The position numbers and the translations under genes are program-made. The notes beneath the pieces were generated by a model. The model searched no databases. It had not been told where the DNA came from and saw only the letters and a list, made by a program, of their open reading frames with translations. A stretch of 15,691 nt of DNA, from NCBI GenBank assembly GCA_039588295.1, contig JBDHAB010000057.1:1-15691 (forward strand), written 5' to 3'. This document shows, piece by piece, positions 2,480 through 14,897 of this stretch; position 1 is the first letter of the stretch; the number at the start of each line of letters is the position of its first letter. Source of the stretch: Gemmatimonadota bacterium (GTDB lineage Bacteria; Gemmatimonadota; Gemmatimonadetes; Gemmatimonadales; GWC2-71-9).

Positions 2480-2839
2480 TCAGTAGACAGCCACAATGCG
2501 GTAGTTCCTGTCCGGGTAACCCGGAGGCTGGATGTCAACACCGGGAAGACCTACAAGAATGTGGGTTCCATCTTGAGCGTCTTTGAGGTCGCAGGGATAC
2601 TCGCGATACGCGTCGCTGTCGGGATACGGCCCCACGTAACAAGCGATCACTGGAGGGTCGTTCATCGTCCCGGCTTCGGGAGGCAGTTGCACTTCAATGC
2701 CTGGGCCGATCTCGAGCGCACCCGACAAGACGATACGAGTGCCAGGTCCGGCTGGGCCTTGTTCGCCTGGAAGGCCTTGGCACGTAGCGAGCAAGAGAGA
2801 GAGCGGCAAGAGGATCAGGATCTTCGCGTAGCGCGGCAT
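2480..2839 (-). CDS. Small lipoprotein with a short collagen-like Gly-X-Y stretch (119 aa)
   Basis: Likely start is ATG at 2839, preceded by aaaaggggtatct. Signal/lipobox MPRYAKILILLPLSLLLATC, then GLPGEQGPAGPG, two further Cys and C-terminal YRIVAVY. The longer 2480..3190 ORF call extends into the antisense of the integrase remnant. Confidence 0.75.
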   Translation of the reverse strand: MPRYAKILILLPLSLLLATCQGLPGEQGPAGPGTRIVLSGALEIGPGIEVQLPPEAGTMNDPPVIACYVGPYPDSDAYREYPCDLKDAQDGTHILVGLPGVDIQPPGYPDRNYRIVAVY

Positions 2840-2959
2840 AGATACCCCTTTTGACGCAGCCGCGCCGACGACGAAGGCCGACTGCGATCTTCGAATCGTG
2901 ACGGGGATTGGGCTCCTAGCATGCTCAACCTGCGGATGTAGCTCGGGATCGGCAACTCG

Positions 2960-3145
2960 GGCCTCGAACAAGCCGTCCGCCGCGGCGGCCTCGCCCGCAA
3001 CGTCGCGAAGCTCGTCGATCTCCCCCGCCAGACCCGGCGCGAGATGACGGTGCTCACGCCGGCGGAGGCGGCGCGATTCCTGGCCGCGGCGAAGGAAGAC
3101 CGCTGGCGCGCGCTCTGGGAGCTGCTCCTGGCCACCGGCTCTTAG
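2960..3145 (+). pseudogene. Fragment of a phage/ICE-type tyrosine recombinase (integrase)
   Basis: Translates as GLEQAVRRGGLARNVAKLVDLPRQTRREMTVLTPAEAARFLAAAKEDRWRALWELLLATGS*. This matches the core-binding to catalytic domain junction (AV..G...RNVA..V..P; VLT.EE...FL; L...TG.R). It ends exactly where the catalytic Arg of TGxR should be. Upstream in-frame stop at 2939-2941. Confidence 0.85.
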
Positions 3146-3164
3146 TCGGGACGGCGGGATTTGA
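3145..3164 (-). other. tRNA-Pro-like 3' end fragment (partial T-loop plus acceptor strand), possible att scar
   Basis: Reverse complement is TCAAATCCCGCCGTCCCGAC: T-loop end, T-stem strand, acceptor strand CGTCCCG and discriminator A, as in tRNA-Pro genes starting CGGGACG. It abuts the integrase remnant stop codon. Confidence 0.6.
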
Positions 3165-3244
3165 CGCGGTGCGACCCTGAGGCCGCGCAAGCGGCCGACA
3201 GGCAGAGCGCGGATCGAGCCGCTGCGTCAGCAGGTGCGCGGATC

Positions 3245-3276
3245 ACGCGGCGTGAGCGAGCGACACGGTCGCGACG
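3245..3276 (+). repeat. GC-rich motif, copy 1 (acgcggcgtgagcgagcgacacggtcgcgacg)
   Basis: Near-identical to 6454-6486 (tcgcggcgcgagcgagcgacacgagtcgcgacg). Contains the small hairpin gcgac-acg-gtcgc. Confidence 0.75.
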
Positions 3277-3872
3277 CGAACAGAGCGGAAGGGAGAAGTG
3301 GTCACGACCGCTGCTCCCTTCAACCCTCGACCCCCTGATTACCAAGCCGGAGCAAAGCGACGGCATGCACGAGTGCGAGCGTCGATGCAATGGCATCGGC
3401 GCTTGCGCTTCGACCCAAAGGCAGCTGTCGGGCCCATGCGAAGGTCCCGATTCCGGCACCGCTGCTGGAGGCTACCTCTCCGCCACTCTCTATGACTGGG
3501 CAAACGCTCGCTGCACAGCGCACGCTGCTCCAACGCCCTCAGCCTGACGCGCTACAACCGCGCCGCGGCCCACGAGCGTTCAACAAATCTGATAGCACTA
3601 CTCGTATTGTGGCGGTTCTGCGACTCTTGCGATCCCACTGCGTGGACCACACTGTGGTGCCGTTCAGTTAGCTAAAGTCCTGTCGGTGGCCCTCCACGGC
3701 CCTGCCGCCTGCCTGACGCCCTCCTCCCAGACGCCCGACGACGACGAGACCGCCGAGCCTCCGGCGGTGAGTCCCGTTTGGCAGTCGGTGATCGTGTTGC
3801 ACGACCGACGCGTCTGCTAGCATGACGCGAGTTGGTGGGCAGAGCGGTCACGGCTTGAACGAGAAGGCCACC

Positions 3873-4115: not shown

Positions 4116-6422
4116 ATGCCACGGACACTCCAGTTCCCGACTCGCACGATCATCGCTTCGGTTGCCATCCTCCTGGTGACCGCCTGCGAGGACGCCTTCG
4201 TCCCCACGGCCCCGACCGAGGAGACCGCTCTGCTTCCACACGTCATCGGGTGTCGCGTTGATGTGGTAGCCGGCACCGTCTTGTGCCAGGGCCCTCAGAG
4301 CGACCCGGTGCCGGGTCTGTCGCTCGCGGTCATCGTGGGAGGTCAGGGCACCTATGTGGAGCTGGCCTCCGACAACGTGAGCTACGACGGCTCCGACGTG
4401 TTTCAAGCAGATGTCACCGTGGAGAACCTGCTTGCGCAACCGATGGGGACGCCGGACGGGTCCACGGTCACGGGGATCAAGGTGTTCTTCCACACGGGGC
4501 CGACGGTGACGAGCGGTACGGGCCAGGTGGATGTCTCGAATGCCGATGGAACCGGAACGTTCACGGGGGCAGTGCAGCCGTACTTCGAGTACAACGAGAT
4601 CCTGCAGACGAACGACATTTCGACGGCAAAGACGTGGCAATGGAGTGTGCCGGCGACGGTCGCGACGTTCGAGTTCTCCGTGTTGGTCAACGCTGAGATC
4701 CCACACGAGCAGGGTGTGTTGCTGTGGCGGAAAGAGCATGGGAGTCAGCTCTGGGACGTGTGGGGCAACTCCTCGACGGATGTCTTCGCCGTGAGTGATG
4801 ACGGCTGGATTCTGCACTACGACGGTTCGGGCTGGAGTTCGCAAGCCAGCGGAACGGCGTATCCGCTCTATGCTGTCTGGGGCAGTTCCGCGACGGATGT
4901 CTTCGCGGTGGGTAATGGGGGTAGGATCCTGCACTCCTCCGATGGCACGAGTTGGAGTTTGCAGGCCAGCGGGACGACGTCAACTCTCAGGGGCGTGTGG
5001 GGTAGCTCCTCCACAGACATCTTTGCCGTGGGTGCCGGCGGTAGGATCCTGCACAACGGTGGCTCGGGGTGGAGCGAGCAGACCAGCGGGACAGGGGAAT
5101 TCCTACGGGACGTCTGGGGTAGCTCCTCGACGGATGTCTTCGCGGTGGGTGGTGGTAGGATCCTGCACTACAATGGCACCTCGTGGAGCACGCAGGTGAG
5201 CGGGCCCGGGGAGTTCTACGCCGTTTGGGGCAGCTCCTCGACCGACGTGTTCGTGGTCGGGGCCGCGTTCGGCGTCGGGGGCGTGATCGCGCACTACGAC
5301 GGCACGGGGTGGGCGTGGCAGATCTACGACGCTGGGGCGCCGACCTTCTACGCCGTCTGGGGCAGCTCCTCGACCGACGTCTTCGCCATGGGGATCGGTG
5401 GTCGCATCTTCCACTACAATGGCACGACCTGGAGCGAGCAGACCAGCGTGGGGATGACGCTGTACGGTGTCTGGGGCAGTTCCTCGACGGACGTCTTCGC
5501 GGTCAGTGATGGCAACACGGTCCTGCACTACAACGGCACGAGCTGGAGCCAGCAGATAGGTGGGGCGGGACCCCTCGAAGGGGTCTGGGGGAGTTCCGCG
5601 ACGGACGTCTTTGTGGTGGGCGCTGCTGGCCGGGTCCTCCACTTCAACGGCTCGGGCTGGACCGAGCAAGCCAGCGGGACGACGGAGGTCCTCGAGGGTG
5701 TCTGGGGCAGCTCCCCAACGGATGTTTTCGCTGTGGGCGGCGGTGGCACGATCCTGCACTACGATGGCTCGGGCTGGACCGAGCTAGCCACCGGGACGAC
5801 GGAGGTCCTCGAGGGCGTCTGGGGCAGCTCCCCGACGGATGTCTTCGCAGTGGGTGGTGGTGGAACGATCCTGCACTACAACGGCACGGCGTGGAGCACG
5901 CAGACGAGCGGGGGCGGGACGCTGTACGGTGTCTGGGGCAGCTCCGCGACGGACGTCTTCGCGGTAGGTGATAGCGCCAGGATCCTGCACTACGACGGCA
6001 CCAGCTGGAGTGAGCAGCAGCCCGGCACCCCAGGAGCCCTCCGCCTCAACGGTATCTGGGGTAGCTCCTCCACGGACGTACTTGCCGTGGGTCTTGGCAA
6101 TAAGATCCTGCACTACGATGGCACGAGCTGGAGCCCGCAACAAAGCGGATCGGTCGAGGATCTGCACCTCGAAGGTGTCTGGGGCAACTCTCCGACGGAC
6201 GCGTTCGCGGTGGGCGTTACGATACGGTACCCCGGTCCGATCCCGCAGTACGATGCCACGGTCCTGCACTACGACGGCACGAGCTGGACTGAGCAGACCG
6301 CCGGGGCCAGTCGCGATCCTTGGCTACGAACGACCGGTTGGCTCGTGGGTGTTTGGGGCAGTTCCTCCACGGATGTTCGTGCGGTTGGCCAATACGGGAT
6401 GGTACTCCACGGAACGCGATGA
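4116..6422 (+). CDS. Secreted lipoprotein with an N-terminal beta-rich domain and 14 VWGSSxTDVFAVG repeats (predicted double beta-propeller)
   Basis: RBS gaggg before the ATG. Lipobox ILLVTAC. 14 counted repeats, mostly about 38-44 aa, of consensus L.GVWGSS.TDVFAVG.GG.ILHY(D/N)G..W. The last repeat is truncated (VLHGTR). Confidence 0.88.
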   Translation: MPRTLQFPTRTIIASVAILLVTACEDAFVPTAPTEETALLPHVIGCRVDVVAGTVLCQGPQSDPVPGLSLAVIVGGQGTYVELASDNVSYDGSDVFQADVTVENLLAQPMGTPDGSTVTGIKVFFHTGPTVTSGTGQVDVSNADGTGTFTGAVQPYFEYNEILQTNDISTAKTWQWSVPATVATFEFSVLVNAEIPHEQGVLLWRKEHGSQLWDVWGNSSTDVFAVSDDGWILHYDGSGWSSQASGTAYPLYAVWGSSATDVFAVGNGGRILHSSDGTSWSLQASGTTSTLRGVWGSSSTDIFAVGAGGRILHNGGSGWSEQTSGTGEFLRDVWGSSSTDVFAVGGGRILHYNGTSWSTQVSGPGEFYAVWGSSSTDVFVVGAAFGVGGVIAHYDGTGWAWQIYDAGAPTFYAVWGSSSTDVFAMGIGGRIFHYNGTTWSEQTSVGMTLYGVWGSSSTDVFAVSDGNTVLHYNGTSWSQQIGGAGPLEGVWGSSATDVFVVGAAGRVLHFNGSGWTEQASGTTEVLEGVWGSSPTDVFAVGGGGTILHYDGSGWTELATGTTEVLEGVWGSSPTDVFAVGGGGTILHYNGTAWSTQTSGGGTLYGVWGSSATDVFAVGDSARILHYDGTSWSEQQPGTPGALRLNGIWGSSSTDVLAVGLGNKILHYDGTSWSPQQSGSVEDLHLEGVWGNSPTDAFAVGVTIRYPGPIPQYDATVLHYDGTSWTEQTAGASRDPWLRTTGWLVGVWGSSSTDVRAVGQYGMVLHGTR

Positions 6423-6435
6423 GGATGGCTCCTTA

Positions 6436-6485
6436 TGCCCGGGGCGGGATTTGTCGCGGCGCGAGCGAGCGACACGAGTCGCGAC
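6436..6485. repeat. Second tRNA-3'-end-like fragment (tRNA-Leu-like, minus strand) joined to copy 2 of the GC-rich motif and cut by the IS
   Basis: Reverse complement of 6436-6453 is CAAATCCCGCCCCGGGCA, like the 3' end of a tRNA-Leu beginning GCCCGGG. On the plus strand it is immediately followed by tcgcggcgcgagcgagcgacacgagtcgcgac and then the IS left end at 6486. Confidence 0.6.
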
Positions 6486-7566
6486 GGCGTTGGTGCATGA
6501 CTCCGGATTTCGACGCATCATGGGTGGTGAAGCCCCGATCCGGAGTCGCCACCGATGAAGTATCCGAACCGGAGCCAGTACCAGTACGCGAGAACTCCCT
6601 ACCGGATTCGCAATTGGCCTGCGTACGAGGCGGGCTTACGCAGACGAGGCGACCTCACCGTCTGGCTTTCCGACGACGCCATCAACTCCTGGCGGGCCCG
6701 ACCCAGCGGCAAGCCCGGTGGTCAACGCATCTACGCGAACATCGCGATTCAGGCGGCGCTGACGATCCGCATGGTCCTGCACCTTCCGCTCCGACAGACC
6801 GAAGGCTTTCCTGCGTTCGCTGGCAGCCAGGCTTGAGGTGGAGCTCCCCGTTCCCGACCACACGACGCTGTCCCGGCGGATGAAGATGCTCGGTGAGCTC
6901 TCGTTTCACGCGGGCGCGAGCCATCAGCCCATCCACCTGTTCATCGACAGCACCGGCCTCAGGATTCACGTTGGCAATCAGCGGAAGCCACCGAGGAACA
7001 GAGCCTGGCGGAAGCTGCACCTTGCGGTCGACGCGGCCACTGGCGAGATCGTCGCCTCAGATCTGACCGGTCGTCGAACGCATGATTGCACTCGGGTGCC
7101 TGCCTTGCTCGAGCAGATCGGCCGTCCAGTGGCCTCCGTCTTTGCAGATGGTGCCTACGATACCGAGGGAGTTTACGAAGCCGCTCGTGCAAAAGGCCAA
7201 GGACGACACGTGAGAGTCGTCATATCACCTCGACGCGACGCCCAGCTGCGTCCAAGGCCGGCAGCCGCATTGCAGGAGCGGAATCGGAACATCCGTTCCA
7301 TCCGCAGACTCGGTCGACGCGAGTGGCACAAGCGGTCGGGCTACAGTCAGCGCAGCATGATCGAGAACGTGATCTATCGATACAAGACGATCATCGGCCG
7401 AGGTATGAGGAGTCGCACCCTGGCGGGCCAACGGGCGGAGGTGCAACTCGCGCGCGGGGTTCTCAACACCATGACCCATCTCGGGATGCCCGACAGCTAC
7501 CGTGCGGGGTGATTCTCGCTCCGGAAACGGGGGACTGCGCTCAGTTCCGAGCCATGCAACAAAGCC
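6486..7566 (+). mobile_element. IS5-family insertion sequence, IS903 group (1081 bp)
   Basis: Imperfect terminal inverted repeats: left GGCGTTGGTGCATGACTCCGGA, right (reverse complement) GGCTTTGTTGCATGGCTCGGA. Both resemble the GGCTTTGTTG ends of IS903. Encloses a single DDE transposase. No flanking direct repeat seen. Confidence 0.9.
6555..7512 (+). pseudogene. IS5/IS903-group DDE transposase with a +1 frameshift
   Basis: N-terminal part: RNWPAYEAGLRRRGDLTVW...LPLRQTEGF. C-terminal part: PVPDHTTLSRR, IDSTG, WRKLHLAVD, ADGAYD, YSQRSMIENVIYRYK (YREK motif). Removing one base from ggctttcctg (6804-6813) restores QTEGFLRSLAARLEVELPVPDH. Confidence 0.88.
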
Positions 7567-14363: not shown

Positions 14364-14897
14364 GTCGCCCCCGGGTGCGTGCCAGGTTAGCCGGTGGCTC
14401 AGCGGTCTCGTCGTCAGGCGGGCGTCACATTGCGGCGTCGGTCAGGCGGCGGGGCCGGGAGGGCCACCGACGGGAATTGTCGTGTCTACGTTCCCCCACG
14501 GTGCAGCCTGGTCAATGCGAGCGCAAGAGTCGTAGAACCGCGACAATTGAAGTGAAACCGTCGGGTATGTCTCTGACGACTTGAGAGTCTTTGTGACGCC
14601 GTTGAGACTACGTTGACACCCTCGTCAGCTGCACCCCATTCTTGGGACGAACTAGCGTGAGACACTGACCATTTCCTGGCGTCCTGGCTGCGGAACGCCG
14701 GTGTCTACCATCGTGTCATGTTCTGCCCGTTCTGTGGCAACGTGATGACGTGTTGGGCGCGAGGCCGCTACGCGCTACAACTGTGTTTTGGTGCGGGTGC
14801 GCCGAATGAGCGGTGGGACGTGTGCGTTCGTGGTGATGCGAGGTGGTTCCGCGCCGGGGGACGGTTTGATTCGTTGACGCGATCCGGCTTAATGGTG

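Follow-up and report, generated by a model that had tools for sequence, protein, structure and literature searches.

The minus strand of positions 3146-3419 carries a piece of a tRNA-Pro(GGG) gene split at two GGGT^TCA sites by three gene-less palindromic modules, which are probably tiny mobile DNA elements homing on T-loop-like sequence. The window, as we call the whole 15,691-nt stretch analysed here, comes from a Gemmatimonadota bacterium (GCA_039588295.1, contig JBDHAB010000057.1; the source genome below). Full-text searches gave no description of gene-less tRNA T-loop modules of this type. If mobile, they would represent a site-specific insertion system aimed at the tRNA T-loop box, which is among the most conserved short sequences in biology. 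With no enzyme encoded in the modules, such a system would be a new puzzle in the biology of transposition and recombination, and it might be a source of programmable or fixed-site insertion activity.

A tRNA-Pro(GGG) fragment beside an integrase remnant

On the plus strand of the window, gtcgggacggcgggatttga is present at 3145-3164 and accctcgaccccctgattaccaagccgg at 3323-3350, about 158 nt apart, just as the first-pass annotation had quoted them. Read on the minus strand, 3146-3164 (TCAAATCCCGCCGTCCCGA) is identical at all 19 positions to the intact tRNA-Pro(GGG) in the congener L035, and 3323-3338 (TCAGGGGGTCGAGGGT) agrees with it at 15 of 16, which is far beyond chance. This match identifies minus-strand 3146-3419 as a displaced 3' piece of a tRNA-Pro(GGG) gene, running from the anticodon loop to the 3' end. 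The tRNA homology starts with a degenerate anticodon loop, TTTGGGT (3413-3419; ATGGGGT in relatives). It resumes with the 3' strand of the anticodon stem, the variable loop and the 5' strand of the T-stem up to T54 (3323-3338; TCAGG-GGGTC-GAGGG-T), and ends with T55 to A73, comprising the rest of the T-loop, the 3' strands of the T-stem and acceptor, and the discriminator (3146-3164). Inserts interrupt the fragment at exactly two points: between the last anticodon-loop base and the anticodon stem, and between T54 and T55, where a gap of 158 nt separates the two tRNA pieces. The earlier proposal of a tRNA-like sequence split in the T-loop is borne out by this position.

The conflict previously noted between a Pro-like acceptor and a Thr-like GGT loop was a misreading: the fragment is tRNA-Pro(GGG) throughout, and its true anticodon loop is concealed by a second insert. 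Of the anticodon arm proposed earlier, ccggc-ttGGTaa-tcagg, only TCAGG is tRNA, and CCGGCTTGGTAA is the end of a 74-nt insert at 3339-3412. The D-arm is absent as described, which is no anomaly, since a displaced 3' fragment beginning at the anticodon loop is expected to lack it. ARAGORN predicted no tRNA in the window, nor when the T-loop insert, alone or together with the other insert, was deleted in silico, so the suggested check with a tRNA finder on the spliced sequence yielded no call for the window copy. A tRNA-Leu with a 100-nt intron, called in intron mode, was spurious. The window copy has no cloverleaf with an acceptor 5' strand and D-arm, in agreement with the initial view that it is not a functional tRNA.

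We infer that the fragment is the scar of an island integration into tRNA-Pro(GGG), of the kind left by tyrosine integrases. It has the sequence identity to the 3' part of the lineage's tRNA gene that marks a displaced tRNA fragment. Among the 160 contigs of the source genome we found no tRNA-Pro(GGG) gene or 5' half, and no intact partner tRNA at another island end; as the assembly is 96% complete, an intact tRNA-Pro(GGG) may simply be unassembled. Tyrosine-integrase islands bear displaced tRNA fragments at their ends according to the account of the Islander database (PMC4383910), and the fragment here is likewise a tRNA 3' part that starts at a loop and lies beside integrase remains. It differs from the fragments of that account in being split at two points by gene-less modules and in having no intact tRNA-Pro(GGG) partner assembled in the source genome. 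Tandem recurrences of the fragment, with small gene islets in between, are seen here as well as in G003:C25.

The integrase remains consist of a 67-aa tyrosine integrase gene fragment (2942-3142, plus strand), whose translation ends in ..LLLATGS before a TAG at 3143-3145. It stops just before the expected start of the catalytic domain and abuts the tRNA 3' end. A Pfam search with the fragment itself recognised no domain, and a paralogue was not found in the source genome. Its 62% identity to residues 157-221 of the 397-aa G031 protein, which carries Phage_integrase (PF00589) and Phage_int_SAM_3, confirms the integrase remnant that had been reported nearby. This internal piece is all that remains of the gene.

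DNA contigs of one public run span 2800-3175 and 3178-3634, so both insert junctions are seen in an independent read assembly, whose sample may be that of the window itself. The contigs of this run also include further copies with different flanks, and none has an insert-free form of the window locus.

Make-up and folding of the modules

All three modules are given here on the minus strand. Module Y (81 nt, 3165-3245) adjoins T55 and reads TGATC...hairpin...GATCCGC..hairpin..GGGTCGCACCGCG. Module X (77 nt, 3246-3322) adjoins T54 and reads TGAAGGGAG..hairpin..CCGCTCTGTTCG..long imperfect hairpin..CGCCGCG. Module D (74 nt, 3339-3412), which contains the 'ttGGTaa', lies between the anticodon loop and the 3' strand of the anticodon stem. 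The hairpins first reported at 3181-3196 (ggccgc-GCAA-gcggcc) and 3288-3321 (gaagggag...ctcccttc) are both present. The insert ends read TGA... and ...GCG, there is no inverted repeat between them, and the inserts show no target duplication beyond one ambiguous T. The modules contain no gene, and the earlier description of the insert as a gene-less folded element stands.

The 158 nt had been taken for a single element. Judged from related loci, they are two stacked and separable modules, X + Y. Module X occurs alone in L103 and L067, Y alone in L029 and L105, and X + Y in the window and twice in G003; other combinations are X with a C-rich module (L036) and a 38-nt module with a three-hairpin module (L014). 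A different species contains two copies of the whole composite, 82% and 80% identical (G003:C25). Inserts homologous to D, 66-73 nt long, are found at the identical point in C43, C53, G003 and others. The source genome also has forms without the 158-nt insert (C53:5878-5987 and C84:896-933), and L045 is a further form without a T-loop insert. The repeat reported at 6454-6486 proved real: here the end of module X is fused to a degenerate CAAATCCCGCC (6443-6453). Together they make up a decayed second copy (6443-6486, minus strand) just past the stop codon of a 768-aa repeat-protein gene (4116-6422, plus strand).

The hairpins are kept by compensatory changes. Module X has 29 pairs and is 92.4% paired, compared with 34-57% when slid; eight pairs are changed on both sides, a number reached by 5 of 500 shuffles, and the covariation score is 0.272 versus 0.131 (0 of 500 shuffles). 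Covariation is weak in module Y (26 pairs, 94.6% paired across five copies), with a score of 0.100 versus 0.056 (6 of 500 shuffles) and three pairs changed on both sides, which 135 of 500 shuffles reached. The Rfam check proposed with the first-pass annotation was negative. At gathering thresholds nothing relevant was found in the window, and at E-values up to 1 no relevant family matched the window copy, G003 or G041; the sole hit at that cut-off was an archaeal snoRNA family elsewhere in L019 (E = 0.78). The RNA fold of the whole unit in the window is no better than that of shuffles (z = -0.82), and the signal lies in local hairpins only. Of the stem pairs, 97% are Watson-Crick; G-T pairs number 24 on the tRNA-sense strand and 22 on the other, and this absence of strand bias fits DNA palindromes. 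Single-sequence folds gave no hairpin for the C-rich family, so the label 'hairpin element' does not cover all families. The three-hairpin family was also judged by single-sequence folds, because MAFFT with RNAalifold on 16 three-hairpin modules misaligned two of the three hairpins.

Recurrence at tRNA T-loops

By similarity, we collected 19 distinct tRNA-Pro(GGG) fragments. Twelve have T-loop inserts of 38-158 nt, ten of which start with TGA; five have none, and in the remaining two the 3' part is missing within range. The anticodon site is occupied in 13 of the 19, empty in five and unclear in one. A scan for CAGGGGGTCGCGGGTTGA in one genome per species, a query that biases the locus set to TGA starts, returned 52 loci. 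A tRNA 3' part follows after 38-158 nt in 30 of these, and 27 of the 30 lie in MAGs whose label begins with Gemmatimonad. Across Gemmatimonadota genomes, unrelated module families of 38-158 nt occupy one T-loop point, and the suggested search for insert copies at that position found related inserts there both in the source genome and in relatives.

Two families occupy both sites of tRNA-Pro(GGG). A 38-nt hairpin module is in the T-loop in L022, L061 and L014 and at the anticodon site in L029. A C-rich module of ~45 nt is in the T-loop in C43, L008, L075, L047 and L026 and at the anticodon site in L093, L060, L069 and L067. The two sites have only GGGT^TCA in common. Within the source genome, at least five tRNA types have modules in their T-loops. 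Five of seven tRNA-Arg(CCG)-like 3' parts have the C-rich module in the T-loop; the two without it are C65 and the real gene. A tRNA-Ile(GAT) fragment (C93) contains it as well, with 91% identity over 44 nt to the tRNA-Pro copy in C43. A Ser-like T-arm (C77) has the 38-nt module, and X lies beside another T-loop half (C121).

Copy number is low, at ~15 per genome. Querying the whole source genome with the modules by BLAST gave 16 hit clusters, of which two were partial matches of 21-23 nt inside other sequence and two were due to tRNA or arm sequence within the query; this search revealed no convincing module copy outside tRNA-like sites. For L094, L077, L092 and L049, where an insert start has no tRNA 3' part within 500 nt, we sought a distant 3' part. 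None could be assigned to their contigs, and hence no autonomous long element was found. In viral contigs, GGGGGTCGCGGGTTGA was matched once, by chance, within coding sequence.

One module interrupts a full-length gene. In G041, a tRNA-Pro(GGG) is split by X and is called by ARAGORN only after in-silico removal of X; it is the sole full-length tRNA-Pro(GGG) found there. Modules can thus hide tRNA genes from gene finders, and they blur the att-site repeats used in genomic island mapping. They may also explain why island scars at tRNA hotspots cease to be recombination substrates.

Possible origins of the modules

In the explanation that we favour, the modules would have arrived by sequence-directed insertion at the box GGTTCRA, which the anticodon loop and stem of tRNA-Pro(GGG), GGGGTTCAGG, would happen to mimic. 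Insertions would survive mainly in island scars, presumably because those that struck a required tRNA gene would not persist. Stacking of new modules on older ones at the T-loop site would probably occur because the left junction recreates GGGT^TGA. The modules would act as folded DNA rather than RNA. As a guess, they are moved in trans by a tyrosine recombinase of tRNA islands rather than by a Y1 HUH transposase; no candidate enzyme linked to the modules was found. Instead of stacking, deletion from X + Y between the short repeats CCGCG or TGA could have given the X-only and Y-only forms. A broader extension, which we put forward tentatively and with some doubt, is that Gemmatimonadota harbour an undescribed class of gene-less DNA modules that read the universally conserved GGTTCRA box in DNA, insert at T54/T55 without target duplication and are moved in trans by a recombinase outside the known transposase partners, perhaps by tRNA-island integrases. 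Such modules would lock islands in place and reshape tRNA-gene hotspots by interrupting att sites that are spare and, at times, live tRNA genes that are dispensable.

Neither a transposition event, an excised form nor a polymorphic site with both flanks identical was seen. When empty and filled sites with an orthologous right flank were compared, the left flanks differed, so another island could have brought in the filled fragment. The copies are few and all within tRNA-derived att-like sequence, as inheritance with island att sites would also produce. The modules might be built into the attachment sites of tRNA-targeting islands as architectural parts. Their place would be immediately 5' of a T-loop crossover, so that they never enter a live tRNA, and they would spread only with islands, by integrase recombination and tandem accretion. 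Every copy is indeed in an att-like tRNA fragment flanked on at least one side by conserved island arms, and the live tRNA-Arg(CCG) and tRNA-Ile genes of the source genome are never interrupted. Its five filled tRNA-Arg scars all hold the same C-rich family, followed in four by similar GTGAAA..CCCCACAG flanks. The published attB of mycobacteriophage Ms6, as located in PMC1762012, lies within a tRNA T-loop. Several observations nevertheless make this origin unlikely. One family sits exactly after T54 in Pro, Arg and Ile fragments, each with that tRNA's own sequence on both sides. The same family also occurs at the anticodon site of tRNA-Pro(GGG), where att-site recombination cannot move it, since only GGGT^TCA is common to the sites. 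Related units with the same downstream flank hold different module sets, and a full-length gene carries X.

The direct repeat of the T-loop-to-3' end that would bound an attL/attR mini-element on both sides was likewise lacking, with one copy of TCAAATCCCGCCGTCCCGA per unit. Among 68 tRNA genes checked in the source genome, the gene's own last 19 bases (at most two mismatches) were repeated within 400 nt downstream once, for a tRNA-Lys on C14, where the repeat lies in the next tRNA-Lys gene. The only other repeat was 1327 nt downstream of a tRNA-Phe on C1. The CIMEs and mini integrative elements treated in PMC5704250, bounded by attL and attR, are similarly integrase-less and tied to tRNA island hotspots, whereas the modules have no flanking direct att-core repeat and share a single ambiguous T.

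It also seems improbable that the modules are miniature IS200/IS605 derivatives or REP-like elements, folded single strands of which are moved by a Y1 HUH transposase (TnpA/RAYT). Insertion would then follow a short target (..TTGA^ or ..CTGA^) on its 3' side, on the complement of the tRNA strand, where the element end ..TCA is conserved. The sequence-specific target, the absence of target duplication and the hairpins near the ends would suit such a mechanism, except in the hairpin-less C-rich family, as would the tandem stacking, since REPs stack in tandem in BIMEs. Like the modules, REPs and BIMEs with RAYT and the miniature IS200/IS605 elements (PATEs) are small, gene-less and palindromic and leave no target duplication. 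The source genome has one Y1_Tnp gene, but no similar hairpins surround it. Across 41 relatives, the window unit and Y1_Tnp (PF01797) do not co-distribute: eight genomes have a window-unit match and Y1, eight a match without Y1, eleven Y1 only and fourteen neither. PF01797 is thus missing from 8 of the 16 match-bearing genomes, and G020 and G034, both 98% complete, have T-loop modules and no Y1 match. The modules are also few and confined to T-loop-like sites instead of being spread through intergenic DNA, and the smallest has a single hairpin. A link to a Y1 HUH transposase is thus not supported.

Highly improbable, in our judgement, are inserts that are transcribed in a tRNA precursor and then removed, or cut out to leave a split working tRNA. 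Excised intervening sequences of rRNA are a precedent for removal at the RNA level. This possibility would accommodate the hairpins kept by compensatory change, the X-split gene as the only full-length tRNA-Pro(GGG) found in G041 and the lack of an assembled intact one in the 96% complete source genome. A U precedes the insert and a G is usually at its end, as at group I intron boundaries. According to the description in PMC11915505, group I introns interrupt the T-loop of tmRNA genes at four subsites, one of them between loop bases 1 and 2, likewise with a U before and usually a G last. The modules, at 38-81 nt, contrast with the 545 bp of the smallest intron-form tmRNA gene given there; they have no group I core, lie mostly in dead fragments and are stacked. 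No Rfam family and no group I match was found at E-values up to 1 in three copies (window, G003 and G041), and RF00028 was absent from the 41 relatives searched, so we rejected remnants of group I introns. G-T pairs in the stems do not favour either strand, most copies belong to fragments that have no 5' half and cannot make a tRNA, and modules stack and occupy a second site. The intervening structured RNA envisaged in the first-pass annotation is therefore disfavoured, although for the full-length gene in G041 it still stands as a candidate. There, the question is whether a bacterium is viable with its sole tRNA-Pro(GGG) gene split in the T-loop. That tRNA may simply be dispensable; in some bacteria, tRNA-Pro(UGG) can suffice for reading all four CCN codons.

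The mobile DNA modules that we favour also resemble the Rickettsia palindromic elements, which are short palindromic repeats sometimes situated within genes, RNA genes among them. We know of no report that those elements target one conserved tRNA box. Three further classes were rejected on their junctions: DDE-type MITEs, as there are no terminal inverted repeats and no duplication at 12 unbiased T-loop junctions; serine and tyrosine recombination with overlaps of 2 bp and 6-8 bp, as the junctions share at most one T; and integron cassettes with attC, where the left junction GGG-TTGAGC fits G^TT and the right junction GCG-T-CAAAT has a single T.

The tRNA-Pro(GGG) fragment and its source genome

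Re-reading the window confirmed the plus-strand letters given in the first-pass annotation, as well as its proposal of a T-loop split by roughly 158 nt: the insert is exactly 158 nt long and lies between T54 and T55. It separates, on the minus strand, the tRNA piece up to T54 (TCAGG-GGGTC-GAGGG-T, 3323-3338) from the T-loop from T55 onwards, the 3' strands of the T-stem and acceptor, and the discriminator (3146-3164, TCAAATCCCGCCGTCCCGA). A congener has an intact tRNA-Pro(GGG) (L035; ...CCTGAATGGGGTTCAGGGGGTCGCGGGTTCAAATCCCGCCGTCCCGA), to which these pieces are identical at 15/16 and 19/19 bases, respectively. ARAGORN and Rfam gave no match on the window. Two full copies of the unit, i.e. the tRNA fragment with its inserts, occur on a contig of another species of the genus (G003:C25), with 82% and 80% identity to the window copy over 266 nt. 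Alignment with these copies refuted the annotated anticodon arm (ccggc-ttGGTaa-tcagg), of which only TCAGG is tRNA. Between TCAGG and the true anticodon loop lies a second insert, the 74-nt module D (3339-3412, minus strand), and the loop itself (3413-3419, minus strand) has decayed to TTTGGGT, where the relatives have ATGGGGT. The tRNA homology starts at this loop and the 5' half is absent. The piece thus has the layout of a displaced tRNA fragment, as described in PMC4383910, which an island leaves behind on integrating into a tRNA gene. Its 3'-side neighbour is a 67-aa tyrosine integrase piece, cut right before the catalytic domain; a relative (G031) has a 397-aa Phage_integrase protein whose residues 157-221 are 62% identical to it.

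The source assembly comprises 4.5 Mb in 160 contigs, the window being one entire contig of 15.7 kb. Six loci carry a tRNA-Pro(GGG) 3' end (C43, C53, C57, C84, C86 and C90), and genes for tRNA-Pro(TGG) and tRNA-Pro(CGG) are present. Searching the 160 contigs revealed neither a tRNA-Pro(GGG) gene nor its 5' half. This tRNA is probably dispensable. A tRNA-Pro(CGG) 5' half with the same sequence as the live gene (C54) was found on the minus strand of C4, ~4650-4750 from the contig's low end (strand-oriented 202293-202324 of 207005). It breaks off in the anticodon loop and gives way to unrelated sequence, an arrangement that looks like an attL-type junction where the tRNA was not restored.

Modular inserts at two tRNA sites

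Searching the genus and family by sequence similarity yielded 19 distinct tRNA-Pro(GGG) fragments. T-loop inserts were present in 12 (38, 44, 47, 47, 75, 76, 78, 115, 125, 157, 158 and 158 nt) and absent from five, the 3' part of the other two not being within range; 13 of the 19 have an anticodon-site insert. The T-loop inserts represent several unrelated families, and long ones are stacked modules. The window's insert contains module X (77 nt, 3246-3322) and module Y (81 nt, 3165-3245), both on the minus strand. X occurs alone at loci L103 and L067, and Y at L029 and L105. L036 combines X with a C-rich module, and L014 a 38-nt hairpin module with a three-hairpin module. Ten of the 12 inserts in this unbiased set start with TGA. 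A left-junction scan of one genome per species, with a query that forces this TGA start, returned 52 loci, 30 of which have the tRNA 3' part after 38-158 nt (27 of these in Gemmatimonad-labelled MAGs). Among the other matches, five were normal archaeal tRNAs whose loop reads TTGAAAT, and seven arose by chance. Module-bearing units at L064, L071 and L093 lie in MAGs labelled Acidobacteriaceae and Alphaproteobacteria and have a conserved island arm in common with Gemmatimonadales loci; their occurrence there may reflect binning error or horizontal transfer.

Module X folds into 29 pairs, 92.4% paired over five copies (34-57% when slid). Both sides changed in eight pairs, as reached by 5/500 shuffles, and the covariation score was 0.272 versus 0.131 (0/500 shuffles). 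Y is 94.6% paired, with weaker support than X: both sides changed in three pairs (135/500 shuffles), and it scored 0.100 versus 0.056 (6/500). In the three-hairpin family, all three stems remain near-perfect although their sequences differ. The C-rich family has no hairpin, and the whole-unit fold was no better than shuffles.

In a relative (G041), X is the only module splitting a complete tRNA-Pro(GGG), which has an acceptor, D-arm and anticodon arm and is followed by an apparent native terminator. ARAGORN called this gene only once X was removed in silico, and no uninterrupted copy was found in G041. Upstream of it, on the minus strand (L103, G041:C11), lies a further partial 5' copy whose D-loop region is enlarged by ~29 nt of palindromic sequence, which may represent an insertion point of a third type. 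Tandem partial copies also precede the intact gene at L035 (G001:C72, minus strand, ~1380-1850), each with promoter-like upstream sequence and a 5' half; in one, the anticodon site carries an 85-nt module, beyond which the upstream region of the next copy begins.

Target sequence and proposed mechanism

The T-loop site (GCGGGT^TCAAAT) and the anticodon loop/stem site (ATGGGGT^TCAGG) have only GGGT^TCA in common, and both host the 38-nt hairpin and C-rich ~45-nt module families. Other tRNAs of the source genome are also occupied. Five of seven tRNA-Arg(CCG)-like 3' parts carry a module after T54, the live gene and one scar (a displaced 3' fragment) being empty. Modules after T54 were also found in a tRNA-Ile(GAT) fragment on C93 (its module shares 91% identity over 44 nt with the tRNA-Pro-fragment module on C43), a Ser-like T-arm (C77) and another T-loop half (C121). 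Because the flanks of each module are that tRNA's own sequence, and the tRNA-Arg fragments, which lack the GGTTC motif at the anticodon site, have no insert there, what the sites have in common is the T-loop box GGTTCRA, and neither tRNA identity nor hairpin geometry. When 62 module sequences were compared with the entire source genome by BLAST, no convincing copies appeared anywhere other than at tRNA-like sites. The two insert junctions have at most one T in common, which excludes target duplication as well as overlap regions like those in recombination of the tyrosine, serine or integron type.

We consider it reasonably probable that these are gene-less DNA modules with the T-loop box as their insertion target, retained wherever an insertion would do no harm, namely in scars and in tRNA-Pro(GGG) itself. 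Full-text literature searches found no published description of such modules; the nearest precedent in print (PMC11915505) is that of tmRNA genes in which group I introns occupy four subsites of the T-loop. The main alternative, that the modules were inherited as part of island att sites, seems unlikely. It is quite improbable that they are REP-like elements moved by Y1 HUH transposases, which were not co-distributed with matches to the window unit: of 41 genomes, eight had both, eight the unit match without Y1, 11 only Y1 and 14 neither. Intervening sequences at the RNA level are very improbable, since the stems (97% Watson-Crick) have near-equal G-T pairs on the tRNA-sense strand (24) and the other (22), giving no sign of selection on one transcribed strand, and no group I intron was found in the 41 relatives searched.

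Probable islets around the units

On G003:C25, a single Ser/Thr-kinase gene lies between two 94%-identical units in a chromosomal neighbourhood of hypothetical genes. An insert-free fragment precedes the same kinase gene in G008, with a near-identical right flank and a different left arm. A 768-aa repeat-protein gene in the window is flanked by the full unit and by a decayed copy (6443-6486, minus strand). These arrangements resemble decayed islets that have accreted at a tRNA-Pro(GGG) hotspot. A 25-kb stretch of G041:C13 (69367-94138) has at least four tRNA-Pro(GGG) 3' ends in the same orientation, which points to an extended array of islets added by accretion.

The tRNA-Arg(CCG) scars of the source genome are located on C46 (5199, 12659 and 20652, an array spaced 7-8 kb apart), C88 (6141), C4 (3652) and C65 (2091). 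Five have the C-rich module in the T-loop; it is absent from C65 and the live gene (C54). Downstream flanks are similar in four of the five filled scars, that on C4 differing.

The 768-aa ORF (4116-6422, plus strand) has ~14 repeats of ~38-39 aa (114-123-nt period) and no Pfam family above threshold. Just downstream of the decayed unit is a 224-aa DDE transposase fragment (6838-7512, plus strand; DDE_Tnp_1, E = 7e-25). Inverted repeats of ~160 nt (3606-3765 and 14390-14547), made of three adjacent pairs (52 nt at 75%, 28 nt at 82% and 26 nt at 92% complementary), enclose ~10.6 kb with the repeat-protein, transposase-fragment, TPR, Sel1 and ankyrin-TonB genes.
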